Assembly (NCBI GenBank): GCA_965200965.1
Contig: OZ241744.1
Location: 2,560,001 to 2,624,000, forward strand
Source: an uncultured Candidatus Binatia bacterium
Lineage (GTDB): Bacteria > Desulfobacterota > Binatia > Bin18
Direction: 5' to 3'
DNA length: 64,000 nt
The notes beneath the pieces were generated by a model, which worked only from the letters and a program-made list of their open reading frames with translations, did no database searches and had not been told where the DNA came from. A program made the position numbers and the translations under genes. Below, in pieces: positions 1,368 through 28,305 of this stretch (positions are counted from its first letter, which is position 1; each line of letters begins with the position of its first letter).

Positions 1368-2112
1368 GGCTCAGCGGCTCCTGGGACCGGGTGAGGATAT
1401 CGACCAGGGTCTCGGTGTACTCTTCGGTCAGCCGGGTCAGGTGTCGGACCCGGCTGGTGAGGTGATGATAGAGCAGATAGTATGGAATGGTCACACTCAG
1501 GCCGGCCGCGGTGGTGATCATGGCTTCGTAGATACCGCCGGCCAGGATGTTAATGGTAATCTGATCGCCCATGACCTCCCAACTCATAAAGGCGCGGATC
1601 AGACCGATGATTGTGCCCAGAAAGCCCAGCATCGGCGCGACCCCGACCACCGCCGCCAGGACGCTCAGATAGGACTCCAGACCGGCAACGACATCGCCAC
1701 CGAGACGTTCGAGACGCCGGGTCAACTCGCCGCGGCCGTGCTCACGGTACACAATGGCGGCTTCAAACAGCCGGCTGAGCGGGCTGGTGTATTCACGACA
1801 GACGCCAAGGGCGATTGAGATATTGCCCTCGGCCAACTGGGGTTCAATACGCTGGTTGAGGGCGTTGAGGTGCTTCCGAAACCGCCACAGGGACCAGAGT
1901 TTCGCCAGCACAATGGCAAGGGCTACGACTGACAGAGCGGCGATGATGAGCAGGACCACGCCGCCTTTGGCCAGAAAAAACCAGACTCCCTGGTCTGTTG
2001 GTAAAATCGTGATGGCCTTTCGCCCTTGCTGTACAGACGCCTCGCCTGTTTTCCGCTTGGCGAGCGGTGAGGACGGCTCGTCTTTGTCAGACTTCACAAT
2101 TCTTGGTGACAA
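1357..2112 (-). CDS. exbB: MotA/TolQ/ExbB proton channel protein; N-terminal ~35 aa derived from palindromic elements
   Basis: APMLGFLGTIIGLIRAF...AGGIYEAMITTAAGL motif; start uncertain (TTG 2112 or GTG 2097). Confidence 0.9.
   Translation of the reverse strand: MSPRIVKSDKDEPSSPLAKRKTGEASVQQGRKAITILPTDQGVWFFLAKGGVVLLIIAALSVVALAIVLAKLWSLWRFRKHLNALNQRIEPQLAEGNISIALGVCREYTSPLSRLFEAAIVYREHGRGELTRRLERLGGDVVAGLESYLSVLAAVVGVAPMLGFLGTIIGLIRAFMSWEVMGDQITINILAGGIYEAMITTAAGLSVTIPYYLLYHHLTSRVRHLTRLTEEYTETLVDILTRSQEPLSHAV
2034..2085 (-). repeat. Family A palindromic element (in exbB N-terminus)
   Basis: cagacgcctcgcctgttttccgcttggcgagcggtgaggacggctcgtcttt. Confidence 0.85.
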
Positions 2113-4549
2113 AGTCCTGGATCTGTTTTTTGAGCTGCGGGTCTCCCAGCCGGTTCAGCATGGCCCGGGTGCCGCGGGCGGTACGACAGCCGGCCTGGGC
2201 GTTGCCGAGTGAGGCGTTGAGGACGGCGACTTCATACGAGCCACGAAACCAGATCGGGTCTCCGACCTGTGAATCCTGGAGCATTTCTTCCCAGTAAGCC
2301 AGCGCTTGCTGTTTGTCGTCGTTGACCTCGGCGATGTGGGCGAGGCCGGCCAGCGAGACCAACGAATAGGCCCCGTCCTGGAGTTCGGTATACAGGGCCG
2401 CGGCCCGGTCGTAGTCTTTGACGTCCAGGTAGAGTTGGGCCAGTTCGTATTTGAACTTGTCCTGGGATTCGTCGGCGGCAAAGTCCTGGCGGGCAATTTT
2501 ATCGCTGTACAGGCGGACCAGGGTGCGCTTGGCGGCCTGGAGGTTTTCTCCAGGGGAATCGTCTGGTCTTCCGCTCGAAAGCTCAGGACGATTCATCTGC
2601 TTTGTCAGGGTCCGAATATCCCGGACTAAGACCTGGTCAAGGGCTTTGAGCAACTCAAGACGCTTGTCGCCGTTATAGTTGGCGAAGATGGCCTCTACGT
2701 TTTTTTCCAGTTCTTTGAACCGGCCGGCTTTCTCCAGGGTAATCAGCCGGACGCGGGCGACGGTTTCAAAGGCATCTTTGTGGACCGGATACTGCTGCTC
2801 GAAGTCGTGCAGCAGGTCGGCGATCTGGACGGCGTTGGCATCGATATCTTCGCTGAGCAGAACTGCATGCATGAACTTGACCCGGCCGCGGTAGTTCCTG
2901 AGATTTTCGCGTTTTTTGCCCTTGGGATTCTGCTGCTCAAACGCAGCGCTGCTCCGCTCAAAGGAGACGAGGGTATCGGCGATTCGCTGTTTGAGCTCGT
3001 CGAGACTGATGCCCGGGTCTTTGGCCGGTGCTTCTTGGCGCAACGCTGCATCGTCTTGTGACTGGTCAGGGCTATTCGTCTTGTGTTCGTAGATCGAAAA
3101 GTAGCTCTGGAGGGTGGCAAAATCGGCCCGGAAGCGAAATTCGATATTACCGCGCACCTGCCGATAGGCATTGACGGCTTCGAGATAGTTTTCCTGCCCG
3201 TGATGGTACTCACCGAGTCGAAAGTGTGCCTCGTGCAGAGCTTTTGAGCGGTTTTTGGTATCGCGCCTGATCAGGTCTCTGGCCGAATCCACATACAGGC
3301 GACCGTTGGCCTGATTCTGTGAGCGGGCAAACAAGGTCTCGGCGGCCTTGAAACGCAGGTAGGCAGCGTTGATCACATTTTTGGACGGCTTGCCACCCAG
3401 GTAGCTGTCGAGGGCGGTTATCGCTTGGCGCAGCCTGCCAGTCCTCACCAGGGCGTCGCCGAGATAATACTGGGCGTCCTGCTTGTAGCGCTGGGCGCGG
3501 GGGTCATCTGACTCCAGAACCGTCCGCAGCAGCGGAATGGCCTTGGCGTGCCGGCCTTGCCGAATAAAGGTCGCCGCGTTGTTCCACGGCAGGTAAGGGT
3601 TGAGGGTCAGCTTTTCGTCTTCGTTGAGTTCTTTGGCCAGCAGCGTATCGGCCCTGTTCTTCCACGAGTCGTCGGCGTCTTGGGATTCTTTGACCCCCAA
3701 TACCAGGCCGATTGCCCGCTCACGCGTCTTGTTGCGCTGCTTGCCCCGTTCTTGCTGGCTGCGCTCAAACAGGCCGGTGGCTTCGGCCAACTGTTGTTCG
3801 AGCAGGTCCTCAGCCGTGGGACCTTGGCGGGGCCGGCGGCCGCTCCTGGCCAGCCGGCGGGTCTCTTTCAGCGCGTTGCGGACCTTGGTACGCATGCTGG
3901 GGCTGGTTGCCCGATCTTGCAATAGCGCCTCAAAGTCTCTGATCGCCCAGTCATACTCGCCCAGTTCCCGCTCGCTCAGGGCGCGGCCGAACAGGGTTTC
4001 GCGTTTGACGTTGGACGCCGGCCCGGAGGCAAACTCGGAGAAGCCGTTAATCGCGTCTTTGAGCATTTGGGTTTGCCGCTTGCCCTCATGCACAAAGGAG
4101 CCGATATAGTTGAGCCAGTTCAGAAAATACAACGATCGGGCAGCCACATCCTGGGCGTCTCTCCAGCGGGCCTCTTCGTACAGCGCCTCAAGGTCGTCGT
4201 CAACGGCCATGATGTCTTGCATCCAGCGCTCCATAGCGTCGGTGTTGGCCTTGTAGATGGCGTGCAGAGGCGCGTTCAGGTCGGTATAAATCTGCCGCAC
4301 GGTTGAGCGCTTGGTCTTGACTGCGCTGGCCAGATCAGAGGCGGCCACAAACTCCATGACCAGCGGCCCGATGACGGCGATGGCGTCAAGCTGTCCGTCC
4401 TTGCCGGTGTTCTTCAACTCGTTGGCGCGATTTTTTGCCTGGACAGCACGCGACGACAAGTCTGAGATCGTCGCCGCACCGCTTGACCCGGGATCTGTCA
4501 GACCGGACGCCAGGGCCAAAAGACAAGTTATGACAATGATGCGTCGCAC
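2087..4549 (-). CDS. Large exported tetratricopeptide-repeat (TPR) protein, 820 aa
   Basis: Signal peptide MRRIIVITCLLALASG; repeated TPR-like helices (AQYYLGDALVR, AHFRLGEYH, YELAQLY). Confidence 0.75.
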   Translation of the reverse strand: MRRIIVITCLLALASGLTDPGSSGAATISDLSSRAVQAKNRANELKNTGKDGQLDAIAVIGPLVMEFVAASDLASAVKTKRSTVRQIYTDLNAPLHAIYKANTDAMERWMQDIMAVDDDLEALYEEARWRDAQDVAARSLYFLNWLNYIGSFVHEGKRQTQMLKDAINGFSEFASGPASNVKRETLFGRALSERELGEYDWAIRDFEALLQDRATSPSMRTKVRNALKETRRLARSGRRPRQGPTAEDLLEQQLAEATGLFERSQQERGKQRNKTRERAIGLVLGVKESQDADDSWKNRADTLLAKELNEDEKLTLNPYLPWNNAATFIRQGRHAKAIPLLRTVLESDDPRAQRYKQDAQYYLGDALVRTGRLRQAITALDSYLGGKPSKNVINAAYLRFKAAETLFARSQNQANGRLYVDSARDLIRRDTKNRSKALHEAHFRLGEYHHGQENYLEAVNAYRQVRGNIEFRFRADFATLQSYFSIYEHKTNSPDQSQDDAALRQEAPAKDPGISLDELKQRIADTLVSFERSSAAFEQQNPKGKKRENLRNYRGRVKFMHAVLLSEDIDANAVQIADLLHDFEQQYPVHKDAFETVARVRLITLEKAGRFKELEKNVEAIFANYNGDKRLELLKALDQVLVRDIRTLTKQMNRPELSSGRPDDSPGENLQAAKRTLVRLYSDKIARQDFAADESQDKFKYELAQLYLDVKDYDRAAALYTELQDGAYSLVSLAGLAHIAEVNDDKQQALAYWEEMLQDSQVGDPIWFRGSYEVAVLNASLGNAQAGCRTARGTRAMLNRLGDPQLKKQIQDFVTKNCEV
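2551..2599 (-). repeat. Family A element, in frame in TPR gene
   Basis: gaatcgtctggtcttccgctcgaaagctcaggacgattcatct; peptide MNRPELSSGRPDDS. Confidence 0.8.
3047..3082 (-). repeat. Family A element (internally deleted), in frame in TPR gene
   Basis: Peptide KTNSPDQSQDDA. Confidence 0.6.
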
Positions 4550-4575
4550 GCTCCCTCTCCTCTATGGTGTGCTTC

Positions 4576-4625
4576 TCCTCATCGTCCTCACATCTTGCTC
4601 AGTGAAGACAAGACGATGAGTCTTT
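4576..4625 (+). repeat. Family A element, intergenic (VWA-TPR)
   Basis: ctcatcgtcctcacatcttgctcagtgaagacaagacgatgagtcttt. Confidence 0.75.
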
Positions 4626-6306: not shown

Positions 6307-6328
6307 GCGTGTGTCTCCTTCCCCCCAG

Positions 6329-6345
6329 AAAGACGAATCGTCTTT
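6329..6345. repeat. Collapsed family A palindrome at exbB stop
   Basis: AAAGACGA-A-TCGTCTTT perfect 8-bp arms. Confidence 0.6.
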
Positions 6346-6991
6346 AGGAGGCCTGGGGCGCTTCTTTCCTGCCGGTGCGGATCGCGTCAATGATGCGATC
6401 GGAACCAATCGTCATGGCCGTATCAATACGTTCCAGCTTGGTATTGAAGTAATTATAGAAGATAACCGCAACAATCGCGACCGCCAAGCCCAACGCTGTA
6501 GCCACCAGGGCCTCAGAAATACCGCCGGCCACAACAGTAAACCCACCGCTGCCCTCGACCGCCATATTCTGGAAGGACTTGATAATCCCAATGACCGTAC
6601 CCAGCAGGCCGATAAACGGCGCGCTGACACCGGTGGTAGCGAGAATCCAGATTGCGCCCTTGAGCCCTTCGGCCTCTTCAAGACGCCGTTCTTCGGACAG
6701 GGCTGACAACTGCTCAGCAGACTCGTCCTGCTGGCGATCGATAATCTCGTGGAACACCCGCCCAGCAGGCCCTTTGTTCTGCTTCTGGCTGGTCTGTAAG
6801 GCGGCATTGAAATCACCCTGCTGCAGCGGGCTCACCAAGTCTCTGGCCAGATGCAGGGTTTTCGTCATGATCCCGCCCAGCGCCCACAGCCGTTCCAGGA
6901 TGATGGTAATACATACCACCGACATGACGATCAGCGGGTAGCTGACATACCACCCCTGGTGAATCATATCCATTACGCTTAGACCTTCCAT
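6344..6991 (-). CDS. exbB: MotA/TolQ/ExbB proton channel protein
   Basis: SAPFIGLLGTVIGIIKSF...AGGISEALVATALGL; AAAGGAGGA RBS before ATG 6991. Confidence 0.9.
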   Translation of the reverse strand: MEGLSVMDMIHQGWYVSYPLIVMSVVCITIILERLWALGGIMTKTLHLARDLVSPLQQGDFNAALQTSQKQNKGPAGRVFHEIIDRQQDESAEQLSALSEERRLEEAEGLKGAIWILATTGVSAPFIGLLGTVIGIIKSFQNMAVEGSGGFTVVAGGISEALVATALGLAVAIVAVIFYNYFNTKLERIDTAMTIGSDRIIDAIRTGRKEAPQAS

Positions 6992-7010: not shown

Positions 7011-7622
7011 TCACCGACCCAGGTCTTCCTCTTCGGCTGAGAAAGACGCATCGTCCTCCCTTCCTGGGTCAACGAAGCTGTTTTGCACGTCGATCTCGTG
7101 CAGAAATCGTTCAAGCCAGTCGATCTCGGCTTTATGGTGAACCAAGCCGTGTTCAATAATTTTGGCCTGGGTGGGGGTGACCTTCCTTTGGGTTGTCCAG
7201 TAGCTTCGCTGTTCGACAATCCAGGCCAGCCGTTTTTGGGCCCATTTGAGGTGGGTGTTCAGGGCTTCGCGCAGTTCGGTGGGCCTGATGAAATGCCCAA
7301 AGGCCAGGGCCGCGTTGAGGGGGTCAAACACCTTCTCTCGGCCCTCGGTATCAAACAGCAGGCGGCGCAACTCGGTCTGGAGATACTCGCAGCCGGCCGC
7401 TGTGATCTGGTAAATCTGCCGCGTCGGGTAACGCCCCTTCTGTTCGGCCCAGGCTTTCTCCACATATCCAGAACGTTCGAGTTGGCCGAGGTTGTAGTAC
7501 AGCGACCCTCCGCTCAGGTTGATATACGTCGCGTACAGCCGCCGTTCGACCTCTTGGCGCAGTTCATAGCCGTGGTACGGTTGCTCAGACAGAAGACCAA
7601 GAACGACGAGTTGAACGCTCAC
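7011..7622 (-). CDS. PadR family transcriptional regulator
   Basis: VLGLLSEQPYHGYELRQ...GSLYYNLGQLERSGYV...YQITAAG winged HTH plus C-terminal helical domain; GTG start after AGGAAGG. Confidence 0.92.
   Translation of the reverse strand: MSVQLVVLGLLSEQPYHGYELRQEVERRLYATYINLSGGSLYYNLGQLERSGYVEKAWAEQKGRYPTRQIYQITAAGCEYLQTELRRLLFDTEGREKVFDPLNAALAFGHFIRPTELREALNTHLKWAQKRLAWIVEQRSYWTTQRKVTPTQAKIIEHGLVHHKAEIDWLERFLHEIDVQNSFVDPGREDDASFSAEEEDLGR
7042..7066 (-). repeat. Family A half element in padR C-terminus
   Basis: aaagacgcatcgtcctcccttcctg; peptide GREDDASF. Confidence 0.7.
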
Positions 7623-7867: not shown

Positions 7868-8623
7868 TTATGTTAAACGGTCTTTCGCAACCATCCCCCG
7901 CTCGCGCAGTAAATTGAGGATGATATCGAGGCTGTGGTCCCACAGCTTGACCTTGAGTTGGTCGTACAGGGTGAAGTTGGCCAGCCTTAACATGGGCTGC
8001 TCAGCGACAAAGTCGATGATATTGATGCAGCCAAAGTCCTGATCAATGTTGAACACCCGCCCGTCGTTGATACCCAGAGCCGAAGCCAGCAGGGCGTTAT
8101 TGCTGCCGCCGTGGGCGACGACGAGCAACGTCCGCCAGTCGGCCTGGGCCAGGACTGTACGCAGAAACCGCTCCCCGCGTTCCCGGACTTGGCGGAAACT
8201 CTCGCCGCCCAGATACCGATCGTCCCAGCCGGTGGTCGGACTGGTGAAGAACCGATGCACGGACCGGAAAATATCGGTCAGGCTTTGTGCTGCGGTCAGT
8301 GCATCACTTGGCGTGATCTCTGTCAGGTCTGGATCGAGGCTGACTTCAAGGCCCGTCTCGTCGGCAATAATCTGGGCCGTTTCGTGGGCACGCGACAGCG
8401 GGCTGGAATAGATGCGATCGAGCCGGACGGCGCGAAACAGCAGGGCCGCGGTGGCGATCTGCTCCCGCCCGCGCTCGGTCAGTGCCCCGTTGCCGATCGC
8501 GCTCTCGTTGGTGGTCTGCGAAGACGCATCGTCCTGTCTTCCTCCTGGCGAACGGTGAGGACGATCCGTCTTTTGATAGAGGGTTTCCCCGTGGCGCATG
8601 AGATAGATCCGGCGGCGCGGCAT
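7868..8623 (-). CDS. Histidine phosphatase / phosphoglycerate mutase family protein
   Basis: RHGET, SSPLSRAHETA, GGESF, VVAHGG motifs; family A element inserted after RHGETLYQ. Confidence 0.9.
   Translation of the reverse strand: MPRRRIYLMRHGETLYQKTDRPHRSPGGRQDDASSQTTNESAIGNGALTERGREQIATAALLFRAVRLDRIYSSPLSRAHETAQIIADETGLEVSLDPDLTEITPSDALTAAQSLTDIFRSVHRFFTSPTTGWDDRYLGGESFRQVRERGERFLRTVLAQADWRTLLVVAHGGSNNALLASALGINDGRVFNIDQDFGCINIIDFVAEQPMLRLANFTLYDQLKVKLWDHSLDIILNLLRERGMVAKDRLT
8516..8573 (-). repeat. Family A element, in frame in histidine phosphatase
   Basis: aagacgcatcgtcctgtcttcctcctggcgaacggtgaggacgatccgtcttt; peptide KTDRPHRSPGGRQDDASSQ. Confidence 0.95.
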
Positions 8624-8636: not shown

Positions 8637-8688
8637 AATACTGATCGTCTTGTTTTCCTGATCAAGCTGTTAAGGCAATTCATCTTTT
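8637..8688 (-). repeat. Family A element, decayed, intergenic
   Basis: aatactgatcgtcttgttttcctgatcaagctgttaaggcaattcatctttt aligns to consensus with many transitions. Confidence 0.55.
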
Positions 8689-8699: not shown

Positions 8700-10274
8700 C
8701 TAATACGCCTTGGCAAAAATGACCCGCCGCCGGCTCGGCTGACCGCTCAGCACGCACACGCCCTCCTCTTCCGGGGCACCCAGCGGAAGACACCGGATGG
8801 TGACGTTCAGATCGTTTTTGAGCGTCTCTTCTACCTCGGGTTGCCCGTTCCAATGGCTGAGGGCAAAGCCAGCGTGAATCTCTGGTTTGTCCCGCCGCTG
8901 CGAAGACGCATCGTCCTGTCTTCCTCCTGACGAACGGCGAGGACGATCTGTCTTTGGAGTGAAGAAGTCGTACAGGTCGACCTTGGAGTCAATGCGGTGC
9001 GTATGCTGATCCCGAAAGCTGCGGGCTCGATCGAACAGCGTGTGCTGAATGTTGTCGAGTTGGGATATCAGCGTTGCCACAAACTCGACCCGCGACTGGC
9101 TGAAGCGCTCCGACTGCGGTCGGTCGCGGCGACCGACAAAAACCGCGTCATTTTCCAGTTCACGCTGGCCGACCTCAAGGCGGATGGGCACGCCTTTTTT
9201 AATCCACGACCAGACCTTTTCTCCACCCGGGGCGTCCCGCACATCAAGTTCGACCCCGAGGGGCTGGTCATCGTAGCGCAAGGTCCGCAGTTCCCAGGCC
9301 AGACCCTCGCAGTAGGCCAGAATCTCGGCCCGATTCTCCTTGCGCAGCAGGGGCAGAATAACGACATGGCGGGGGGCCAGTCTGGGCGGCAGGACCAAGC
9401 CGTTATCGTCACTATGGGTCATGATCAAGCCACCGATGAGGCGGGTTGATACTCCCCACGAGGTGGTCCAGGCGTAGGTTTCCTGGCCGCTGGTGTCGGA
9501 GAATCGAATTTCAGACGACCGGGCGAAATTCTGGCCTAAAAAATGTGAGGTGCCGGCCTGGAGTGCCTTGCGGTCCTGCATCATGGCCTCAATAGAATAG
9601 GTGGCCACTGCGCCGGGGAAGCGCTCGCTCTGCGTCTTCTCGCCCTTGATGACCGGCATCGCCATGTACCGCTCGGCAAAATCGGCGTACACGTCAAGCA
9701 TCCGGGCGGTCTCTTGTTGGGCTTCCTGCGCGGTGGCGTGGACGGTGTGGCCCTCCTGCCACAGGAATTCCGCGGTACGCAGAAAAATACGCGGCCGCAT
9801 CTCCCAGCGCACAACGTTGGCCCACTGATTGATCAGCAGCGGCAGATCACGGTAGGACTGGACCCACTTGGCAAATGTCGCCCCAATAATAGTTTCAGAG
9901 GTGGGGCGGACAACCAGAGGCTCAGTCAACTCCCCTGATGGGACGAGGTGGCCGTCCGGTCCGGCCTCCAGCCGATGGTGGGTCACCACCGCGCATTCTT
10001 TGGCAAAGCCTTCGACGTGCTCGGCTTCTTTTTGCAGAAAGCTGAGCGGAATAAAGAGCGGAAAGTAGGCGTTTTGATGGCCGGTAGCCTTGAACATACC
10101 GTCTAAGACCCGCTGGATGTTCTCCCACAGGCTATAGCCCCACGGCTTAATGACCATACAGCCCCGGACCGCTGAGGTTTCGGCCAGGTCGGCAGCCCGA
10201 ATGACCTGCTGATACCACTCGGTGTAGTCTTCCGCTCGGGTTGGAGAAATCGCCGTCTTCAAGGCTCGCTTCAT
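8700..10274 (-). CDS. proS: Proline--tRNA ligase (archaeal/eukaryote-like type)
   Basis: VRPTSET, NQWANVVRWE, QAGTSHFLGQNF, C-terminal FAKAY. Confidence 0.97.
   Translation of the reverse strand: MKRALKTAISPTRAEDYTEWYQQVIRAADLAETSAVRGCMVIKPWGYSLWENIQRVLDGMFKATGHQNAYFPLFIPLSFLQKEAEHVEGFAKECAVVTHHRLEAGPDGHLVPSGELTEPLVVRPTSETIIGATFAKWVQSYRDLPLLINQWANVVRWEMRPRIFLRTAEFLWQEGHTVHATAQEAQQETARMLDVYADFAERYMAMPVIKGEKTQSERFPGAVATYSIEAMMQDRKALQAGTSHFLGQNFARSSEIRFSDTSGQETYAWTTSWGVSTRLIGGLIMTHSDDNGLVLPPRLAPRHVVILPLLRKENRAEILAYCEGLAWELRTLRYDDQPLGVELDVRDAPGGEKVWSWIKKGVPIRLEVGQRELENDAVFVGRRDRPQSERFSQSRVEFVATLISQLDNIQHTLFDRARSFRDQHTHRIDSKVDLYDFFTPKTDRPRRSSGGRQDDASSQRRDKPEIHAGFALSHWNGQPEVEETLKNDLNVTIRCLPLGAPEEEGVCVLSGQPSRRRVIFAKAY
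8898..8955 (-). repeat. Family A element, in frame in proS
   Basis: 3 mismatches to 8516-8573; peptide KTDRPRRSSGGRQDDASSQ. Confidence 0.95.
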
Positions 10275-10298: not shown

Positions 10299-10991
10299 TT
10301 ATCTCAAAAGCAATGTGGCCAGGCGCAGGTCGTCTGGAGTGGTAATTTTAAAATTCCGCCGCTCTCCGGGCACAATCTGGACTGTCCCACCAGTTTTTTC
10401 AACGAGCGAGGCGTCGTCGGTGGCGTGAATCGCTTCGGCCAAGGCACATTGGTGGGCGTCTCTTATCAGTTCAACGCGAAAGGTCTGCGGGGTCTGAGCC
10501 AGCCATACGTCTTGGCGTGGCAGCGTCTCCGCCACCCTCAGGTCAGAACGATTCATCTTTTCAGCCCGTTTGAGCGTGTCGGCCACTGGCTCCGCCACCA
10601 ATGCTGCCCCGACTTGGTCGGCAACCCGAATGCTGGTATGAATGACGGGCGGGCTGATAAATGGACGGGCGGCGTCGTGAATCACTACGATATCACACCC
10701 CGCATCAAGCGCGGCGAGGCCAAGACGGACCGAGTCTTGGCGTTGGGGGCCACCGTGTGCCAGGCGTATGTCACACCGAAACGGTCCGTGGACTTGGAGC
10801 AACTCACGACACAGTTGTTCGCACTCAGGTGCAATGACCACGACCAGGGTAGACAGCAGGTGGGCTTGGTCAAAGCTGCGCAGCGTATGCACCAGGAGAG
10901 GAACGCCACACACCGGCAGAAATGGCTTGGGGACGCGCGTCCCCAGGCGTTCGCCCTTCCCGGCCGCGACAATAACTGCGTTGACGTGCAT
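10299..10991 (-). CDS. ispD: 2-C-methyl-D-erythritol 4-phosphate cytidylyltransferase
   Basis: AAGKGERLG, RQDSV, HDAARPF, AQTPQ, TDDASLVE, KITTPDDL. Confidence 0.96.
   Translation of the reverse strand: MHVNAVIVAAGKGERLGTRVPKPFLPVCGVPLLVHTLRSFDQAHLLSTLVVVIAPECEQLCRELLQVHGPFRCDIRLAHGGPQRQDSVRLGLAALDAGCDIVVIHDAARPFISPPVIHTSIRVADQVGAALVAEPVADTLKRAEKMNRSDLRVAETLPRQDVWLAQTPQTFRVELIRDAHQCALAEAIHATDDASLVEKTGGTVQIVPGERRNFKITTPDDLRLATLLLR
10541..10561 (-). repeat. Family A half element in ispD
   Basis: rc aaaagatgaatcgttctgacc; peptide KMNRSD. Confidence 0.55.
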
Positions 10992-14574: not shown

Positions 14575-15822
14575 ATGACGACCCACACCCTCATTGGCCT
14601 GATGTCCGGCACCTCGCACGACGGGATTGACGCCGCGCTGGTTGATATCAACTCAAAGACGAACCGTCCTGACCGTTTTCAGGTTCGTCAGCGGGCCTTT
14701 CGCGCTTTTCCGTATACGCGCCCAGTGCGTGAGCGTTTATTGCGGCTCAGTCAGGGCGCTGCGGTTCAGGCCGGTGAGGTCGCCCAGGTCAATGTGCTGC
14801 TGGGCGAACTGTTTGCCAAAGCCGCGCTCAAGCTGTGTCAGGCAGCCCATATCGCCTGCGACCGCGTGATGGCGATCGGTTCACACGGGCATACGATCTA
14901 CCATCAGCCCCGTCAGCGCCCAAGCCCCGGCTCTACCCTCCAAATCGGTGAGCCGGCCGTCATTGCCGCCCGGACGGGTATCACCACGGTGGCCGATTTT
15001 CGGCCCGCCGATCTGGCAATGGGCGGAGAGGGCGCGCCCCTCGTCCCCTATGTCCACCACGCCTTGTTTCACCAGCCCCGGCGGTCGGTCGCCGTCCACA
15101 ATATCGGCGGCATCGCCAACCTAACCTATTTGCCCGCCCACCACGCGCTCGACGGCGTCCTGGCCTTTGATACCGGCCCCGGCAATATGGTCATTGATGG
15201 GGTGGTTCAGGCGGTCAGCGGGGGAAAAAAGCTGTACGACAAAGGGGGGCGTATGGCTCGCCGGGGCAGGGTCCACAAGGCCCTCTTGGCCGAACTCTTG
15301 CGCCACCCATATTTTCGACGCCGGCCGCCCAAATCCACCGGCCGCGAGGAGTTTGGTGAGCCGTATATCCGACACTTCCTCAGCCGGGCTTCAGGGCTGA
15401 CTGCCGAAGATCAGGTTGCGACAGCCACCGCGCTGACGGTCGAAAGCATGGCCCGCGCCTACCGCAACTTTGTGTGCCGAAAGACGACTCGTCCTGACCG
15501 TTCGCACAGAGAAAGAGCGGACGACTCGTCTTTGCCGGGCACGCTGGATGAGATTGTGCTGACCGGTGGCGGAAGCCTCAACCCGGTGCTGGGTGAGTGG
15601 CTGGCCGAGGCGCTACTGCACATCCGTGTGCGGCCCTCGGAAGAACTCGGATTTGACAGTCAGGCCCTTGAGGCGCTGGCATTCGCGGTGCTGGCGTATG
15701 CAACGCTCCACGGCATAGCGTCGAATGTGCGGGGCGCAACAGGCGCTCGGGCACCGGTCGTTCTGGGCAAAGTGGCCCCGGGGCGCAACTATCGCACCAT
15801 GCGACTCATCTTGTCTTCCTGA
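14575..15822 (+). CDS. anmK: Anhydro-N-acetylmuramic acid kinase
   Basis: IGLMSGTSHDGID, GSHGHT, GGEGAPLVP, NIGGIAN, FDTGPGN, KSTGREEF. Confidence 0.96.
   Translation: MTTHTLIGLMSGTSHDGIDAALVDINSKTNRPDRFQVRQRAFRAFPYTRPVRERLLRLSQGAAVQAGEVAQVNVLLGELFAKAALKLCQAAHIACDRVMAIGSHGHTIYHQPRQRPSPGSTLQIGEPAVIAARTGITTVADFRPADLAMGGEGAPLVPYVHHALFHQPRRSVAVHNIGGIANLTYLPAHHALDGVLAFDTGPGNMVIDGVVQAVSGGKKLYDKGGRMARRGRVHKALLAELLRHPYFRRRPPKSTGREEFGEPYIRHFLSRASGLTAEDQVATATALTVESMARAYRNFVCRKTTRPDRSHRERADDSSLPGTLDEIVLTGGGSLNPVLGEWLAEALLHIRVRPSEELGFDSQALEALAFAVLAYATLHGIASNVRGATGARAPVVLGKVAPGRNYRTMRLILSS
14655..14680 (+). repeat. Family A half element in anmK
   Basis: aaagacgaaccgtcctgaccgtt; peptide KTNRPDR. Confidence 0.75.
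15480..15533 (+). repeat. Family A element, in frame in anmK
   Basis: aaagacgactcgtcctgaccgttcgcacagagaaagagcggacgactcgtcttt; peptide KTTRPDRSHRERADDSSL. Confidence 0.92.
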
Positions 15823-15863
15823 GCAAAAGCTTGGGACGATGGGTCTCGAAGGAGGGCAATCCG

Positions 15864-17022: not shown

Positions 17023-17068
17023 AAACACGAGCATCGTCCTGCTCAGGAAGAGGAGACGAGGCGTCTTT
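17023..17068 (+). repeat. Family A element providing the stop of the 53-aa ORF
   Basis: gcatcgtcctgctcaggaagaggagacgaggcgtcttt. Confidence 0.65.
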
Positions 17069-20098: not shown

Positions 20099-21306
20099 AT
20101 GTCTATCCGGTACACACCGATGGTCTTTTTCCTGGCCGGATCGTAGTGCCGCCATTTTTCGGCCGGGACCTGTTCGGCCGTAACCCGCCGGAAGCCACTG
20201 CGTTCGAACAAACGCCGAGCCCCGGCCTGAGAGGTACAGGCAAACACATAGCCCAAACCAGCCGCCCGGGCCTGTTCCAGCATCGTCCCGACCAAACGGC
20301 CACCGATTCCCTCGCCCTGAAAACGGGTAATCGTATACAGCCCCGCGATTTCTGCAGCATTCTTCCTGGGATAGGGCAGCAGGGCACAGACCCCGGCCAA
20401 CTCTCCGCCGGCCGCTCCGAGACGGGCACAGTGTCCGTGGAACAGCAATTGACTGGTCTCTGTGTGGCTGCGAGGTTTGAGGCCGCCATCGCGTTCGCCA
20501 CGCCGGATCAGCCGCTCGGCTTCATAAAAGTCGTCTAATCCCAGCGGCTCTAGCCGGCAGTAATCGGTCAGGGTAAAGAGTGTCCCCTGCCCTTCATAGG
20601 TAAACAGTTCTCCCGCCACATCGGCCGGCCGACACAGCGAAACCGAGGCAACCCCACCCTCCAGGGCCGCCCGGACCGACGCCAGGACGCCCAAGTCTTT
20701 CTCTTGAACGGTGCGGACAGGCGGTGTTCCTGCCGCCCGGGATTGGTCCAGGAGTTTATTCAGCGCGGCCCCATTCATAAAAGACACGCGATTTCCTCTG
20801 ATGCAGAGACCACCGTTCGGGTCAAGGATGACGAGTTTATGGACCTTGAGACGAACGGCTAAACGTTGGGCCGGGGATTGCTCACCGACGCCAGGACGCC
20901 CAAAAGATGCATCGTCCTGTCTTCCCCTGGGACGATGCGCCTTTACCGGCCCGACGGTCCGCCTCTGAGGAGCCGGCCACAGGCCGACAAAGATCGGTGT
21001 TGTTCTGAGAACTGTCCATATGTGTTCCAAGACACTGTTTTCCTCGGCCGGCAACGCGACGAACCGGGCGGCCAGAGCGATGCGCAACAGTTCCAGCCCG
21101 GGTTGGTCCGAGTCGTCCGTTTCGATCAGAACGATCAGTCGCGTTTCGTTACGCGTCAACTGCTGGCAGACCTCGGCCATCGCCTTGACCGCTGCCGTGT
21201 CTCTCAGGTCTTCGGCCCGCAGGCTGAAAAAGAGACTCTTGCCGCAAAACTCTTTAAGGTAAAAGTCTTGTTCGATAAACGAAGCGGGCGTGAAGGTCTG
21301 GCTCAT
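20095..21306 (-). CDS. Amino-acid N-acetyltransferase (ArgA-like: degenerate AAK domain + GNAT)
   Basis: ELFTYEGQGTLF, LKPRS, AEIAGLY...FQGEGIG acetyl-CoA motif. Confidence 0.75.
   Translation of the reverse strand: MSQTFTPASFIEQDFYLKEFCGKSLFFSLRAEDLRDTAAVKAMAEVCQQLTRNETRLIVLIETDDSDQPGLELLRIALAARFVALPAEENSVLEHIWTVLRTTPIFVGLWPAPQRRTVGPVKAHRPRGRQDDASFGRPGVGEQSPAQRLAVRLKVHKLVILDPNGGLCIRGNRVSFMNGAALNKLLDQSRAAGTPPVRTVQEKDLGVLASVRAALEGGVASVSLCRPADVAGELFTYEGQGTLFTLTDYCRLEPLGLDDFYEAERLIRRGERDGGLKPRSHTETSQLLFHGHCARLGAAGGELAGVCALLPYPRKNAAEIAGLYTITRFQGEGIGGRLVGTMLEQARAAGLGYVFACTSQAGARRLFERSGFRRVTAEQVPAEKWRHYDPARKKTIGVYRIDI
20903..20944 (-). repeat. Family A element, in frame in argA-like gene
   Basis: aaagatgcatcgtcctgtcttcccctgggacgatgcgccttt; peptide KAHRPRGRQDDASF. 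Confidence 0.9.
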
Positions 21307-21338: not shown

Positions 21339-24300
21339 TCAGGTGGACATTCGCCTTTGTGCAAGCAGGGCTTGGGCGTCAGCCCGGGCCCGCTCGTCCC
21401 AGGCAAAGTGTATACCTGTGGACGAACGGACAAACAGGACCGCCAAGTCCTTTACAGGATAGGCGGTCAGTTGCTCAAGGGCGAGGGCATAGGCGTATAG
21501 CCCAGAGCGGCAGCGGGCGGCCTGACTTTCAGCTTGGCCGTCCGCAACAGCATCCGTCTTCAGATCAAGAATGACCCAGGCCTTGTTTTCAACAAAAGCC
21601 AGGTCGATCACGCCGTTCAGGACTATGTCCGTGTGGGGTGGGGCTTGATAATGCAGGCTGAAGGGCAGGTCGGCAAAACAGTCCTGGGCGGCGCGGGCCC
21701 TGCTCAGGAGCGGGCCGGTCAGGACGTTGCGGACGAAGCGTTGCAGGGGGGTGCCGGCGCTGACAGCAAAGGGAAGCGTGATCTCCTGTGTGTTACCACG
21801 ATTCCCCGTGCCGTCATTTGGGCGGTGGCTCGTTTTGATGCTCTGTTTCAACGCCATGCGCACGGCGCGGCCGAACTGCGGCTCTGCCCCTGGCGAGATG
21901 AATCGTCTCGTCTTCCGCTCGAAAGGTGAAGACGATTCATCTCTATCCCGAGGGTGATCAGAATCTTGGGTATGCTGGACCAGAGACTCGACGCTTAAGG
22001 TAAGCGACGATCTCTTCTCGATGAGGTGGTCTGCATTATACACGGTCTGGGGCTGTCTGCCCTGTTCTCTGATCGCCTGTTGATCGGCCTGCCAGGACTG
22101 GTAGCGCTCAAACGCGGACTGATTGGGCGGGACGGGGGGCCGCGGTCCTCCTGCGGCTGGGCGGCCGGCGGCGTGGAGAGGTGGGGGGTCTGGGGAGATG
22201 ATCGGCTTGGGTTCGGCGGCATTGAAGACCTGCCACAGGCTCTGGCCGGTGGTGCTTTCCAACTCGGGCAGCAGGGGCAAAATGAGCCGGTCGCGCGCCC
22301 GTGTTGCGGCGACATACCACAGGCGTCGCTCCTCGGCCTCCTCGCGGGCTCCCTCACGCGCCTCCGCCTCCCGCCAGCCGAGCGTATGCCAGGCCAGGGT
22401 CTGCGGACCGAGCCGCAGTTCGAGGTGCCCCCGGGGCTGGACAAGTCGGTCCCCTTCCGCCTCCTGAGGCGACGGCGGTTTGTGGCTGCGTTCGATCAGA
22501 CCGGTCCGGCTTGAGCGACCCGGGGCGAGGATTGCATCGGCAAGAATCACGACCGGAAACTCAAGTCCTTTGGCCTTGTGAATCGTCAGGAAGCGAACGG
22601 CCGGTCCATGCTCTTCTGCGACCGCCGCCTCGCCTTCCTCAGTCGCCCGGTGGTGATGAGCAAGAAAGCGGTTGAAGGCGCTCAGGCTGCGAACGCCCTG
22701 GTCAGCCAAGCTCTGGGCAAGCTCAATCAGTTTGATCAAGTTTGCCGTTCGCTGGCTCCCCTGGGGGCGGAGGGCAAACAGGGGCACGAGATGGGTCTGA
22801 TAGATATCGTACAACACCGTTGATGGGCTGCACTGCCGGGAGCGGGCGTACAGCTCGCGCAGCAACGCAAAAGCCGCTCCAAAGCGGTCCGCGTCCGGCA
22901 GCCCGGCCGGCGGGGCGTGGGTGTAGTCAAAGACTCCCCCGGCAGCGGCGAAGTGCAAGAGCGCTTCGTCTGAAAAGCCGAACAGGCACGACCGTAAGCT
23001 CGCTACCAGGGCGTTGCTGTCAGCCGGACTGTCGATGACACGCAGCAGCACACGGAGTTCCTCAACCTCGTCCCGAGTCATATACTGACGCCCGCCGAGA
23101 ATCTGATATGCGATAGCGGCACTCTGGAAGGCTTCCTCGTAGGCATCCATGGCGCGATAGGTACGGAACAGCACGGCAATGTCACCATACGCCTGGTCTC
23201 CCTGCCCGAGGCGGTGTTTGAGGAAGCCGGCCACGGTTTGGGCCTCTGCCCGGCGCAGGTCGTCACGCCCCGGCTGGGACGGCAGCAGGTCCGGGGGAAC
23301 TGGAACGGAGATGACCGTCTGTCCTTGGGCGGTCTGGCCCGTGTCTGTGCTGTGTTCTTCCTGTTCTTCGTGGCGGGTTGGCAGCAGTGGACGATAGCTG
23401 GGGGCATCTTCAGCAGTGTTGGGCGCAAACACGCGAGAAAACGTTTCGTTAATCCAGCTCAGAATTGGCGCTCGGGTCCGGAAATTGCTTGACAGGCTCA
23501 GCAGCGTTCCCTGGCTTTCGATAGTGGCCCGGACGAGATGATAGACGGCGAGATCGGCACGTCGAAAACGGTAAATGGACTGGTGTGGATCGCCGACCAG
23601 AAAAAGCTTGCCGGGTTTCAGGATAACGTGGCTCCAGGCGTGAGCCCGAGGCGTGTGTTCGGCCAAAAAGAAGATAATTTCGGCCTGGAGGGGATCGGTA
23701 TCCTGGAATTCATCAACCAGAAGAAAGTCGAATTTCTGCTGAAAATACCGGCGCACCTCCATATTGTTGGCCAGCAGGTCTCGGGTGTACAGCAGCAGGT
23801 CGGTAAAATCGAGAGACATCTGCTGGCGTTTTGCGTCGTCATACACTGCCAGATAGCCGCTCAGCCACCGGACAAGCGCAAGCGTGTGGTTATGCACCCA
23901 GGCCGCACGCGCCTTGCTGTGGGCGTCACGCAACTCGGCAAAACAACGCCGCACCTCATCCAGACGGAGGGTCGGCTGCCAGTGGGTTTTGTTGCCGACC
24001 CGCTCCGGCAACTCCAGCCGGCTGTACAGCAGACGCTCCCAAAGCGGGTCAGCGTCGCGGTCCGGCATTTGCCGGATGAGGTCCATCATCCGTACAAAGG
24101 CCCGGTCGCTCGGCTCTGTACACGCCGACCGGAGCTGAGACAAACGCCCGATGGACTGCCGAAAGCTATGCCGGAATTGGGCCAGGGGGGAGGCCAGCGG
24201 CTTGGGCAGGAGGGCCAAGCAGTCTCGCTGCTCAACAACAAAGTCACGCAAGGCCCGCAGATGGCTCAGGCTCAGACCGGCCCGGAGGGCTGTTTTCAGG

Positions 24301-24866
24301 AAAGCCGCAACGTCCTCATGTGAAGACGATGCGTATGGTCTTGCTCTTGGCGAGCGGTGAGGACGCTGCGGCTTTCTGTCCTGGCTTGACCCCATCTCTT
24401 GGGCCAGCCAGTCGCGCCAGGTTTGATCCTGGACGACCCGCCTGCCAACCCCGTCCAGGACGCTGAAATTCGGGTCGACCAACGCCTCCAGGGGCCGCTC
24501 GCGGAGTAACAGGGCGCAAAAAGCATGCACGGTCAGAATCGAGGCCCGTTCGAGTTGAAGACGCGCGGTGAGCAGATTACGCTGCTCGTCCTGGCCGAGC
24601 GGTGTGTTCAGGGCGGTGTCAATCTCGGTCCGCAACCGAATACGGAGTTCGGTCGCCGCCTTTTCGGTAAAGGTGATGGCAGCGATCCGATCCAGGCGGC
24701 TCCGACCGGTCCGAATCACCGTGAGCAGGCGTTGGAGCAGGACGCTCGTCTTGCCCGTGCCCGCCCCGGCTTCTACCAGGAAGCTGGTGTCGAGCTCACT
24801 CGCCGCCCGATCGCGCGGCTGAGCGTCACAGGCACGCGTGGTGTCCTGGTTGTCTGGGTTGCTCAT
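21339..24866 (-). CDS. addA: ATP-dependent helicase/nuclease subunit A (UvrD-like + PD-(D/E)xK)
   Basis: EAGAGTGKT, AITFTEKAA, VDEFQDT, VGDPHQSIYRFR, TIHKAKGLEF, YVAATRAR, GVIDL..DLKT. Confidence 0.93.
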   Translation of the reverse strand: MSNPDNQDTTRACDAQPRDRAASELDTSFLVEAGAGTGKTSVLLQRLLTVIRTGRSRLDRIAAITFTEKAATELRIRLRTEIDTALNTPLGQDEQRNLLTARLQLERASILTVHAFCALLLRERPLEALVDPNFSVLDGVGRRVVQDQTWRDWLAQEMGSSQDRKPQRPHRSPRARPYASSSHEDVAAFLKTALRAGLSLSHLRALRDFVVEQRDCLALLPKPLASPLAQFRHSFRQSIGRLSQLRSACTEPSDRAFVRMMDLIRQMPDRDADPLWERLLYSRLELPERVGNKTHWQPTLRLDEVRRCFAELRDAHSKARAAWVHNHTLALVRWLSGYLAVYDDAKRQQMSLDFTDLLLYTRDLLANNMEVRRYFQQKFDFLLVDEFQDTDPLQAEIIFFLAEHTPRAHAWSHVILKPGKLFLVGDPHQSIYRFRRADLAVYHLVRATIESQGTLLSLSSNFRTRAPILSWINETFSRVFAPNTAEDAPSYRPLLPTRHEEQEEHSTDTGQTAQGQTVISVPVPPDLLPSQPGRDDLRRAEAQTVAGFLKHRLGQGDQAYGDIAVLFRTYRAMDAYEEAFQSAAIAYQILGGRQYMTRDEVEELRVLLRVIDSPADSNALVASLRSCLFGFSDEALLHFAAAGGVFDYTHAPPAGLPDADRFGAAFALLRELYARSRQCSPSTVLYDIYQTHLVPLFALRPQGSQRTANLIKLIELAQSLADQGVRSLSAFNRFLAHHHRATEEGEAAVAEEHGPAVRFLTIHKAKGLEFPVVILADAILAPGRSSRTGLIERSHKPPSPQEAEGDRLVQPRGHLELRLGPQTLAWHTLGWREAEAREGAREEAEERRLWYVAATRARDRLILPLLPELESTTGQSLWQVFNAAEPKPIISPDPPPLHAAGRPAAGGPRPPVPPNQSAFERYQSWQADQQAIREQGRQPQTVYNADHLIEKRSSLTLSVESLVQHTQDSDHPRDRDESSSPFERKTRRFISPGAEPQFGRAVRMALKQSIKTSHRPNDGTGNRGNTQEITLPFAVSAGTPLQRFVRNVLTGPLLSRARAAQDCFADLPFSLHYQAPPHTDIVLNGVIDLAFVENKAWVILDLKTDAVADGQAESQAARCRSGLYAYALALEQLTAYPVKDLAVLFVRSSTGIHFAWDERARADAQALLAQRRMST
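21771..21806. repeat. Family B element, in frame in addA
   Basis: gggaagcgtgatctcctgtgtgttaccacgattccc; peptide GNRGNTQEITLP. Confidence 0.8.
21895..21943 (-). repeat. Family A element in addA (alternative frame)
   Basis: 14-bp perfect arms gagatgaatcgtct/agacgattcatctc; peptide RDESSSPFERKTRRFI. Confidence 0.85.
24323..24375 (-). repeat. Family A element, in frame in addA
   Basis: Peptide KPQRPHRSPRARPYASS. Confidence 0.88.
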
Positions 24867-24880: not shown

Positions 24881-27800
24881 TCAGCCGATTGTGTGGAGCT
24901 GGTGCAGGACGGCCCAACGCGGGTCATGGCGTTTGTGTCGCATCCGTTTGCCGACCTGGCTGCCGCAGATCTCGGGAAAAGGGCACGGATAACAGGTGTC
25001 GGGGTGTGGAAAAAAGCAGCCGGACCGGATTCCCTCCAGCAGAGTGGTGAGGAGAGACCGCAGGACGCGGACTGACTCCGGCCAAGTTTCTTCGCTAAAC
25101 ATGGGGGTGACGGTATGGACACGCTGGCCGAGCCCGACATAGCTGGCCGATTCCCACGCCAAGTCAGGCCGCAGGCTGCGGGCCGCAAACAGATACAGCG
25201 GAAGTTGCAGGGCGGTCCCTGCGGCAAACAAGCGTGATGTCCTTGTGGGCCTTGTCACGATTGCCTGTGACCGACCGCGTGGCAGGTGGCCGGTTTTATA
25301 GTCAATGATCCGGGCTTTTACCTCAGTGGAAGACACATCGATCCGATCAATCCTGCCCTGCAAGCAAATAGGCTCCCCGTCTTCGAGGCTGAAGCTGACC
25401 GGTCGGTCAGGGAAAAACTGCGAGTCGCGTATTGGCGAGCGGTGAGGACGCTGCGGCTTTGCTGAACCAAAGGCGACCTCAAAAGCGTGGGGCACAAACT
25501 CTGATTCGTCCGCCGCCTCCTGATGGACCAGGCGAATCAGGCCTTCCCGCAACTGTTCCTGTTCAAGCTCCCATAGCAGAGGCAGGCCGGTGGGCTGAAG
25601 TTCGGCAAAACGGGTAAAGTGTTGGTCAGCAATGGGTATCAGCCGCCGGACCAAAAGCTGAGGGTCCTGGCCGTGCATGGGCAGTTGACCGGCCGCCTTC
25701 AACTGGGAGAAAAAGTCGTACACAATAGCGTGCAGCAGAAGGCCCCGCTGGCGAGGGCTGAGGGCCACCATCTCCTCAGCATCGTCCGTCGGAGTCAGAC
25801 CCAGCACATGACTGAGGAAATAGAGAAAGGGACACCGGGCGTAGGTTTCGAGGGCACTTGGCGAGACACAAACCCCGGAGGGAAACAGATGTTGGTGCAG
25901 CCTGCGCTTGGCCTCAGGAGCTTTGAGCAGACCGTCAAAGGCGGTGAGATGTGGACTGTCCAGACGTTGGCCGATCGCCTGCTGGGCGTAGGAAAAGGCG
26001 GGTGAGGCGAGCGGGAGATAGCCCAGGACACTCACATCGCCGCTGGCCAGCGCCTGCTCAACCGTCGCCAAGTGGAATTCGAGGGCATCTTGGGCCTGCT
26101 GGACGGACCCGGCGTACACTGGTGTCAGCGGGACGCGCTGACACCAGGCTTCCAGATCGGCAAAGGTTTGCACTTGACCCCGCAGGGCCTCAAGGACGCG
26201 CAACAGATACCAGGAGGGCAGCTGGGGACGGCCGCTCGCCTGGTCGTGGCTGGGATAGCTCAGGATGAGGTGTTCAACCGCACTCTGGGTAGCCAGACAG
26301 AACAGCAGACGTTCTTCCTCGGTGTGCTGACTGCGTTGGGCAAGCTCACAGCCGAGCGTCTCGGCCAGGTGTTGGCGTTCAGCGTCGAGCAGCAGCGGGT
26401 CTTGTCGAACGCTGCGCGGGAAGCCCCCGTCAACCATGCCGGGAATGATGACGGCTCGAAAACGGACGCCCCGAGCCGCGGACAGCTCACCGATGAAAAC
26501 GCCGTTGGTCTGACCGGTGGGGGAAAGACGATCCGTCTGTGTGGCAAGGGCCTGGCTGACGGCCTTCGCCCAGTCTTCAAGGCGTGGGGTGGGCGCGTCC
26601 TGTCTTGCGCTTTGCGACCGGTGAGGATGCTGCGTCTGGTCGCTCAGGTCAAGCTGGGCCAAATCCAGCAGCAGTTCTTCAATGTGGTCGGTATACACCG
26701 TCGTGCCGCTATAGGTGCGGTACAGCCGCCAGCTGTAGTCTGCCCAGGCGTGCCAACTCGGCCGGCTCGGCCGCGGCTCGGCCGCGGCGAACAGCCCACG
26801 CATAAAGGCCATGCACGCTTGCAACATGGGCAGAACGGCCGTGGCCTGGTCTGCACCTTTCTCGGCCTCGTAGGCTTTTTCAAGCTGGGCCAGACCGCGT
26901 TGCCACTCCCGGCGGCCGCTGACAATGCCTGCCTGCTGGACCAAGGCGTGCCAGCGGTCGGGCTGGGCGTGCTGAACCATAGCGTCCGGCAGCAGGCTGG
27001 CGTAGGGCGGCTGGCTGACACGCAGAAACTCAAACACCCGGTCAGGCGCGTAGTCTTCAACCAGCATACGACACAGCAGGTGCAGGGCTCGGCCGGCCGA
27101 GGTATGGAGCAGCGGCAGACCGCCGGACAGCCAGCTTGGGATGCCCAGATTCTTGAAGGTCTCGGTCAACAACGGACCGTAGCGGGCCGGGTCGCGCAGC
27201 ACGATCCCAATTTCAGAAAAACGGAGCCTGTGGTCGCGGACAAGAGACAGCACCATCCGACTGATCTCACGCGCCTCGCGGCTGTAACTCGGCGCTGCCA
27301 GGCAACGAACGGGGACGGCGCTGGCCGAAGAGATATCTTCATGGGGTCGGTCATCAACCCTGTCTGGTGTGGTCTGGGGCACCTCTTCAAAAAGGGAACG
27401 GTGGAGCCGAGACAGCCCGGACTCTGCCGAGCGGGCGAGAGGGGTAGAGGTGAACCCCAAGCTCCGCAGCCAGCTCAGCGTCGGCGTCGCATGGGCATAC
27501 GCGTTGCCCGCCCGCCAGGGAAAGAAAACCAAGCCGTCGCGGTCTTGCAGGGCGGCCACAATCAGACGCCGCTGGAGTGGGCTGAAGTCAGAGAACCCGT
27601 ACACAAACAGAGCGCCCGAAAGACGCCTCGGCCCGTCTTCCTCTCGTCTTTGTGATGCTTCAAGCTCAAGGGCGGCCTGTTCCAGCATATCCTGATCATC
27701 GTACAGCCGCCGGTCGGTGAGAAACCGCTGGTACTGCCCGTACAGCATGGCAAGACTTTCGATCTTTTTCCGGTAGACACCGCTCAGTCCTGCCCGAGTC

Positions 27801-28228: not shown

Positions 28229-28305
28229 GTTGTCCTGCTTACGCGGTTTGTCTTTCTTTTTCAACGATTGTGTGGCTGACAAAGGGGACGCTGCTCTCCT
28301 CGTGA

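Follow-up and report, generated by a model that had tools for sequence, protein, structure and literature searches.

How does a palindrome of some 50 bp come to lie, in frame, in a whole series of housekeeping genes of one bacterium? The question is raised by a 64,000-nucleotide stretch, hereafter the window, of the genome of an uncultured Candidatus Binatia bacterium (G000; C1:2560001-2624000, within a single 3.62-Mb contig of 61.5% G+C), in which an earlier note, made from the sequence alone, had described a repeated palindromic mini-element in genes such as those of prolyl-tRNA synthetase (ProS), AnmK, IspD, AddA and AddB. The best explanation as a whole, to which we give a probability of about 0.55, is that a hairpin of 51 or 54 bp has inserted flush, without target duplication, at some 180 sites and in several waves. 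Its mover in trans would have been an HUH transposase (RAYT/IS200-like), able to recognise hairpins and since lost from G000; inside genes, copies would have been retained only at sites where an insert of whole codons with an open and hydrophilic frame is nearly harmless. The parts of this explanation differ in strength: that the element is non-autonomous and mobilised in trans is very probable, it is likely a selfish element resembling the Rickettsia palindromic elements (RPEs), and an HUH enzyme as its mover is a tentative proposal.

Copy number and genomic extent

Gene names in the window follow NCBIfam, and the genome-wide gene calls were made with our own hexamer model, so that genome-wide gene starts are approximate. 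Relatives are coded G001 to G007 and onwards, congeners being the members of genus g1; the sister genome G007 is syntenic with G000 at about 89% identity. Several public sequencing runs containing window DNA carry the label sponge metagenome.

An exact 17-mer of the repeat matches the window 12 times when up to three mismatches are allowed, where 0.23 matches would be expected. With a profile made from 32 copies, 21 copies, whether full, half or decayed, were recovered from 2034 to 27646, and the reversed window yielded none; the number is close to the roughly 20 copies first reported, and every host gene named at that time does carry copies: two each in AnmK, AddA, the ArgA-like gene and the tetratricopeptide-repeat (TPR) protein gene, four in AddB, a half copy in IspD and a lone arm at the 3' end of ExbB, together with those in ProS, the histidine phosphatase and PadR. 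Beyond the 21 profile matches, a further AddB copy was found at 25432, and remnants of another subfamily, D, at 21997 and 28281. The range originally given, 2034 to 28255, proved too narrow, copies being also present at 38032, 43174, 45274 and 47567 and throughout the genome.

As a whole, G000 possesses 181 copies in three subfamilies, A (48 copies, the type of the window), BC (87) and D (46), a number far above that of the reversed and codon-shuffled genomes, in each of which no copy was found with any of the models. Since the models were seeded from window copies, decayed A copies are easier to detect near the window. Contigs of four public runs from four studies, which as contigs drop rare variants, include the copies in 1900-9100 and have no joint that skips a copy; the copies are therefore not assembly artefacts. 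An Rfam scan of the window at gathering thresholds gave no match.

Structure of the element

The unit, first estimated at about 52 bp, measures either 54 bp (16+22+16) or 51 bp (16+19+16), with two 16-bp inverted arms around a loop of 22 or 19 nt. In 123 copies, 10 or more of the 16 arm positions are paired; of these copies, 96 have the 19-nt loop (51 bp) and 8 the 22-nt loop (54 bp). As single strands, full copies fold readily, the eight tested giving z values from -1.1 to -3.4. The arms act as a pair: their covariation score is 0.496 vs. 0.222 in shuffles, and double changes affecting both arm sides occupy 190 cells vs. 77 in shuffles, a value reached by none of 500 shuffles, both figures being inflated by kinship among the copies. 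As arm mismatches of the G-T (84) and A-C (97) types are equally common, a DNA rather than an RNA structure is indicated. Copies in relatives combine a variable loop with arms whose positions are, for the most part, 97-100% fixed. Self-complementarity is weak and restricted to the arms of subfamily A.

Flush insertion in several waves

Alignment to orthologues, advised by the earlier note, bore out the insertions, relatives being empty at the sites in ProS, the phosphatase, AnmK, AddA, AddB and the TPR gene; in both ProS and the phosphatase, an exact block of 54 bp is absent from the congeners. Both flanks could be aligned in the relatives' DNA compared for 39 full copies, and 22 of them have a relative with exactly zero extra bases. 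At these 22 flush sites, the junction repeats are 0 bp in ten cases, 1 bp in six, 2 bp in three, and 3, 4 and 5 bp once each; being mostly of 0-1 bp and of no fixed length, they argue against a fixed target duplication, and the target-site duplication that had been sought is absent.

A model-free comparison of 535 orthologues (940 kb of G004) gave 45 segments of at least eight residues that are extra in G000, 27 of which overlap detected copies, with 11 segments of 17 codons and 8 of 18 codons. The reverse comparison yielded 19 segments extra in G004, three of them of 17 or 18 codons, and no such peaks.

The sites also differ in age. Those of subfamily BC examined in G007 are empty in 18 cases, filled in three and in another state in two, whereas nine of the A sites are filled and three are in another state; subfamily A thus mostly predates the split between G000 and G007, and BC is mostly younger. 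Subfamily D was also found in G004, G005 and G006. There were accordingly several insertion waves, and D is shared by members of the genus; G004, considered as an element-free genome, was rejected as such because it carries D. At the IspD, TPR stop codon and ArgA-like sites (window positions 10540, 2034 and 20903), different subfamilies are present in different congeners, which suggests hot spots of targeting or of tolerance, or old copies that were rewritten. Copies inside genes decay by deletion, to 42, 33 and 12 bp.

Copies inside genes

Copies are under-represented in genes, which hold 70 of the 181, with 111 in intergenic regions, in a genome of which about 80% is coding. The window agrees with what had been claimed for it: all 15 internal in-gene matches are in sense orientation, 12 of them in the named frame (two and one in the others), and antisense matches occur only at gene ends or between genes. 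Genome-wide, the bias persists in subfamily A, of whose in-gene copies 21 are in sense, 14 of these in a single frame, and 1 is antisense; D has 8 sense and 1 antisense in-gene copies, and in BC the bias is weaker (29 to 10, with 9, 10 and 10 copies in the three frames). The weaker bias of the younger BC indicates a filter and not a built-in property. The three stop-free sense frames that had been proposed hold for the consensus but not for individual copies, the frames being open in 14, 10 and 6 of 14 intergenic copies. Only the favoured A frame is open throughout, in all 14 intergenic copies, and it is also the most hydrophilic, with a grand average of hydropathy of -2.07, and the BC frame that is open in only 1 of 42 copies was never found in genes. 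Intergenic copies have no orientation preference relative to their flanking genes (20 sense, 26 antisense). We conclude with considerable confidence that selection causes both the frame and the strand bias.

Concerning the proteins, the proposal of a non-autonomous mobile hairpin that adds hydrophilic loops stands as regards in-frame inserts of low hydrophobic fraction (0.21 vs. 0.45 for the proteome), the placement in loops being a prediction. Host reading frames are intact, and the G007 orthologues are 80-92% identical; translation of the inserts as part of the host proteins is predicted. In ProS, the insert coincides with the gap that separates two blocks of the alignment to PDB 1h4q, and the AnmK insert forms a gap when aligned to the solved homologue 4zxz; both are predicted to lie at surface loops, where they would probably be tolerated. 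With its insert, ProS still scores 470 bits, above the TIGR00408 cut-off of 437. In the phosphatase, the insert is located a few codons past the catalytic histidine motif; a single-sequence fold of this protein had a mean predicted local distance difference test score of 38.7, too low for use, and a PDB search with it gave no match at the threshold applied. No RNA run containing window DNA was found among the public runs listed.

Target preference and chromosomal position

The element has a weak target preference, which recurs in a second, independent set. At 101 of 164 half-sites in G000 there is C at -4 or G at +4, as there is at 63 of 136 in the independent set, where A at -6 accounts for 3% and G at -5 for 54%. 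Out of 82 G000 sites, 78 have C at -4 or G at +4 (23 have both and 55 have one) and 4 have neither. One good side is sufficient (Fisher p = 1.6e-4 in G000 and 0.048 in the independent set), a pattern that a one-sided target and a threshold over two half-sites fit equally. The flank also resembles the element's own 3' end above the level of random DNA (0/500).

In four genomes, copies are enriched around dnaA. The chromosome quarter closest to this gene contains 96 of 181 copies in G000, 28 of 58 in G006 (arms with at most one mismatch), 34 of 57 in G031 and 32 of 68 in G036 (both of the latter among the best 150 of 245 listed matches). Without the 95-kb cluster around the window, the G000 count is 62 of 147, and in DNA shared with G004, 40 copies were found in 316 kb near dnaA vs. 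5 in 314 kb far from it. The origin is represented here by dnaA, and its position is approximate, the minimum of GC skew in G000 being 220 kb distant from that gene.

Distribution among relatives

A covariance model of the element, whose matches per genome are lower bounds (at least the number given) in which both strands may count, matched 14 of 61 relatives, with 6 of 7 congeners, 7 of 10 genomes of genus g8 and none elsewhere. Of the 401 genomes of the class, 25 carry the fixed-arm form, namely 5 of 7 in g1 and 20 of 28 in g8, with 0 in 144 other genera; the form was also found in 56 metagenome loci, and its copies are 46-57 bp long, 59 of 112 being of 54 bp. Most copies in the loci of relatives lie between genes. 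In four g8 loci (L206, L213, L217 and L222), copies are frequently in direct contact with a stop or start codon within core operons, identified by eye as pheS-pheT, rplT and ftsQ-ftsA. Viral contigs were rejected as carriers: they gave 25 single 16-base matches, none with a partner arm, which were taken as chance.

Search for a mobilising enzyme

The mobilising enzyme was expected to be encoded elsewhere in the genome. None was found in G000 among the families searched, namely Y1/RAYT, IS110, IS4/IS5-type DDE transposases, ISAzo13 and DUF559 (all five being also without a match in G007); tyrosine recombinases number only two, with no fit as mobiliser. No convincing pair of lone arms flanking a gene was seen in G000 or in the relatives' loci examined. 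Reverse transcriptase was rejected as mobiliser, being absent from copy-rich genomes such as G036, G165 and G149; a reverse-transcriptase match at G000:C1:2405378-2405806 has one internal stop, and its G007 version is open. The element as a dimer of TIRYT ends was also rejected, as the TIRYT ends of relatives differ.

G000 and G007 have almost no mobile genes, unlike G006, in which contig C8 has one IS4/IS5-type transposase in about 42 copies of equal score, along with 11 matches to reverse transcriptase. Two other short repeat families of G000, with about 225 and 130 exact copies, are presumably CRISPR repeats.

Comparison with known elements

The element behaves like an RPE and is built like a half-size REPIN (a paired repetitive extragenic palindromic, or REP, sequence), and it fails defining tests of both. 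RPEs (Ogata et al. 2000, 2002), as presented in the relevant passages of PMC2229807 and PMC10969869, are Rickettsia elements of 105-146 bp. The earlier note had likened the two while calling RPEs longer, which is correct on both counts: in-frame insertion is shared, and the present element is of 51-54 bp. Further likenesses, in the same passages, are a lineage-restricted palindrome present between genes and in frame in conserved protein genes, with a mover that is not known either. Besides its size, the Binatia element, here compared with RPEs by description, differs in having a host of another phylum and flush empty alleles without duplication, the corresponding entry of PMC2229807 listing duplication as unknown for RPEs; for the Binatia element, a target preference and an origin bias have moreover been measured. 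Parallels in Wolbachia and Methanocaldococcus are cited in those passages as well.

REPINs, in the descriptions given by PMC3116915 and PMC5581495, consist of two conserved inverted 16-mers around a variable spacer of fixed length, with compensatory changes and a hairpin in single-stranded DNA. The Binatia element likewise has two conserved inverted 16-mers around a variable spacer and forms a hairpin, but it is about half the size, its arms are not tagged REP hairpins as there described, no RAYT gene lies beside it or in G000, and 39% of its copies are in genes. The GTAG- and CGTC-tagged REPs and the families of TIRYT terminal inverted repeats are, according to the parts of PMC3733652 that treat them, short palindromes of which some lie inside replication, repair, tRNA-synthetase and recB-type genes, and the same parts include CGTC-tagged families without a known transposase. 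REPs as characterised there have a terminal tag, a stem of 8-9 bp and a loop of 4-5 nt, whereas the element has a 16-bp stem and a 19-22-nt loop; the letters CGTC occur inside its arm and not at the terminus, and no TIRYT gene is flanked by its arms.

[quoted passage not shown] The absence of target duplication is shared with IS200/IS605 elements, which have a strict target of 4-5 bases on one side, set by a guide in their end; the element here has a weak preference for which one side is sufficient and which is not copy-specific, and, unlike theirs, its orientation is untied to the direction of replication. No earlier description of this family was found in the full-text literature searched, which covered the running text of openly accessible papers but not, for instance, the consensus tables of PMC3733652.

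Candidate mechanisms of movement

HUH enzymes leave no target duplication, and it is because of the flush footprint, together with the REPIN-like layout, that an HUH mover is favoured here. Such enzymes bind hairpins and cleave by means of base interactions near the hairpin foot, as outlined in 10.1101/279083. Several observations weigh against it. Neither G000 nor G007 has a Y1 transposase, whether searched with Pfam or with a profile of 23 Y1 proteins of relatives (best E 0.52), and the BC wave is younger than the split of these two genomes, though both are without Y1. The suggestion that copies might flank a RAYT/IS200-TnpA gene found no support, for in addition to this absence from G000, no copy lies beside any of 43 Y1 loci of relatives, nor beside any of 10 more; these loci are flanked by GTAG REPs or other inverted repeats, and the element itself lacks the REP tag. 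The resemblance of its end to the target is not copy-specific, since 50-186 of 500 shuffles reach it, and the best-defined target, in a repeat that flanks DUF559 genes in relatives, departs from the general preference. Unlike IS608, the copies have no leading or lagging bias (69 vs. 54 of 123; single half-sites 35 vs. 35), and an HUH mover alone leaves the origin bias unexplained.

As regards the Y1 loci themselves, those of L129, L161, L163 and L164 and of L119, L123, L167, L168 and L180 comprise RAYT genes accompanied by GTAG REPs as well as longer Y1 genes enclosed between inverted repeats, all unrelated to the element; the RAYT gene of G006 (NF047646) is similarly flanked by GTAG REPs and not by the element.

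Alternatively, there may be no dedicated transposase, a host replication or repair enzyme copying or capturing the hairpin and joining it blunt into breaks. This is unlikely but deserves serious consideration: it would explain the success of the element in transposase-poor genomes, G000 having none of the five families searched and only two tyrosine recombinases, and it accounts better than an HUH enzyme for the density near the origin, that is, for the crowding near dnaA in G000, G006, G031 and G036 and in the DNA shared with G004; the lack of a replication-strand bias also agrees with it. However, arms that are nearly fixed in 25 genomes suggest sequence-specific recognition, and the patchy spread (2 of 146 genera, and 20 of 28 genomes within one genus) suits a mobile partner better. 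Moreover, the searches covered six enzyme families and reverse transcriptase, which leaves room for an unrecognised transposase, and the origin argument depends on dnaA as a proxy 220 kb from the GC-skew minimum in G000.

In a further explanation, which we regard as improbable, a DUF559 (Vsr-like) nuclease cassette moves the element or carries it between lineages. It stems from G031 (L376:1300-6100), where a DUF559 gene is surrounded by a GC-rich double-hairpin repeat that bears six copies, all inserted at one and the same bond. Copies nested in this repeat make up 17 of the 190 distinct copies in relatives' loci, in both genera, in both orientations and with differing loops, and a copy lies no more than 1.5 kb from 6 of 30 DUF559 loci, these six all belonging to a single subgroup of seven. 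The gene is nevertheless absent from G000 and G007 and the host repeat from G000; the remaining 173 of 190 copies are not nested, and three of the six copy-bearing loci are one orthologous site without the host repeat. As the close DUF559 clade is restricted to eight genomes, all of g8 and none of g1, hitch-hiking after one or a few insertions, which accounts equally well for the association, is the plainer reading. The tandem GC-rich double-hairpin repeats of L376:1300-6100 are mixed with other REP-like repeats; the DUF559-flanking repeat resembles, without matching it, the TM/BoxC consensus in the form printed in PMC4666352. No viral relative of the DUF559 protein was found.

Derivation from a DDE insertion sequence, as an ordinary MITE moved by a transposase that happens to leave no duplication, would fit the conserved 16-bp terminal inverted repeats and the roughly symmetric target preference, but it is still less probable given the missing target duplication, the lack of any lone-arm pair flanking a transposase in G000 or relatives' loci (in a search that was not exhaustive), the ends of 10 IS4/IS5-type, 4 ISAzo13 and 1 IS110 loci, which are unlike the arms, and the absence of ISAzo13 from all 28 g8 genomes; 51 bp would also be very short for a paired-end complex. 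Retention for function, as an RNA hairpin or a useful protein loop, might be read into the many g8 intergenic copies adjoining stop or start codons and into the in-gene inserts common to two species at about 89% DNA identity, but it is very improbable, as G-U pairs are not in excess over A-C, intergenic copies are unoriented to flanking genes, in-gene copies decay by deletion and an Rfam match is absent.

Copies and neighbouring genes in the window

Unless a plus sign is given, the copies lie on the minus strand. A decayed subfamily-A copy (2034..2085; profile match) stands directly after the TPR stop codon, where G007 has a shortened copy and G005 another subfamily. The TPR gene itself contains, both in frame, a 51-bp copy (2550..2600; shorter allele in G004, G005 and G002) and a 42-bp internally deleted copy (3042..3083; exact 42-bp gap in G004 and G005, present in G007). 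An intergenic antisense copy (4573..4625, +; profile match, common to G007) abuts the stop of the 4625-5842 gene. Two more profile matches are the lone arm, self-complementary, that the ExbB/TolQ-like gene carries at its 3' end (6329..6346, no strand assigned) and a right-half remnant in the C-terminal tail of PadR (7042..7065).

The full 54-bp copy of the histidine phosphatase (8520..8573), in frame and with the strongest fold (z -3.4), has an exact empty site in G001, G002, G004, G005 and G006. Between this gene and that of ProS lies a decayed copy (8643..8687; profile match), and near the C-terminus of ProS another full 54-bp copy in frame (8902..8955), with an exact empty site in five congeners and the same gap in G002 and G013. 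The left-arm remnant in frame in IspD (10540..10560) makes the gene 12 bp longer than the G004 allele, and G001, G003, G005 and G006 have another subfamily at the same codon. AnmK carries an in-frame left-half remnant near its start (14654..14680, +; profile match), a full 54-bp copy in frame (15480..15533, +; exact empty site in five congeners) and, spanning its stop, a decayed antisense copy (15801..15846; profile match); an intergenic remnant follows (17031..17068, +; profile match).

In the ArgA-like gene, a short remnant (20695..20717) is longer in G007, and a 42-bp loop-deleted copy (20903..20944; profile match) is in frame. AddA contains a 51-bp copy in the other sense frame (21894..21944; profile match), a remnant of the older subfamily D (21997..22031; common to G007 and G004) and a 75-bp in-frame remnant of a composite (24301..24375) that is of 105 bp in G007 and has an exact empty site in five congeners. 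In AddB were found the left part of a composite copy (25432..25461; longer in G007), a 12-bp arm remnant (26524..26538) and a decayed copy (26595..26637), both in frame and recognised by the profile, and a 33-bp internally deleted copy in frame (27619..27651), with an exact 33-bp gap in four congeners and common to G007. The composites of AddA and AddB in G007 (L032:14093-14199 and 12929-13030) are of about 105 bp and consist of one subfamily inside another, in opposite orientations in the two genes; G000 retains deleted forms.

Further along, the subfamily models recognise D remnants upstream of AddB (28281..28310) and at 38032..38074, and the younger BC is represented by an intergenic 51-bp copy (43174..43224, +; subfamily match) and by 51-bp copies at 45274..45324 (+) and 47567..47617, both empty in G007.

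Methyltransferase, restriction-specificity and McrBC-like genes are located at 11723-12916, 42216-44462 and 60561-63039, the genes at 11723, 42216, 43293 and 60567 having no orthologue in the relatives' DNA compared. Elsewhere on the contig (about 0.27-0.30 and 1.13-1.16 Mb), two tandem arrays comprise about 26 near-identical large membrane-protein genes.

Biological meaning

The RPE-like phenomenon itself was already known, and the hosts are uncultured. The way in which RPE-like repeats enter protein genes has been an open question since 2000, chiefly for want of empty alleles and of insertion footprints. The congener panel supplies dated filled and empty sites, an exact footprint of whole codons without duplication, a target preference and an origin bias in four genomes, which together narrow the possible enzymes, and from the comparison of older with younger subfamilies, selection can be seen to filter frame and strand. 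ProS, AnmK, AddAB and other proteins moreover provide a natural experiment on loop insertion whose cases can be counted. A bolder and unlikely reading is that of a minimal mobile DNA without a classical transposase, in which a one-hairpin, whole-codon unit would be blunt-joined by an origin-associated host enzyme or a Vsr-like DUF559 nuclease, with dozens of core proteins being extended wave by wave and the unit passing between genera while nested inside DUF559 cassettes. If true, such a transposase-free reading would be the first concrete handle on how RPE-like elements move.

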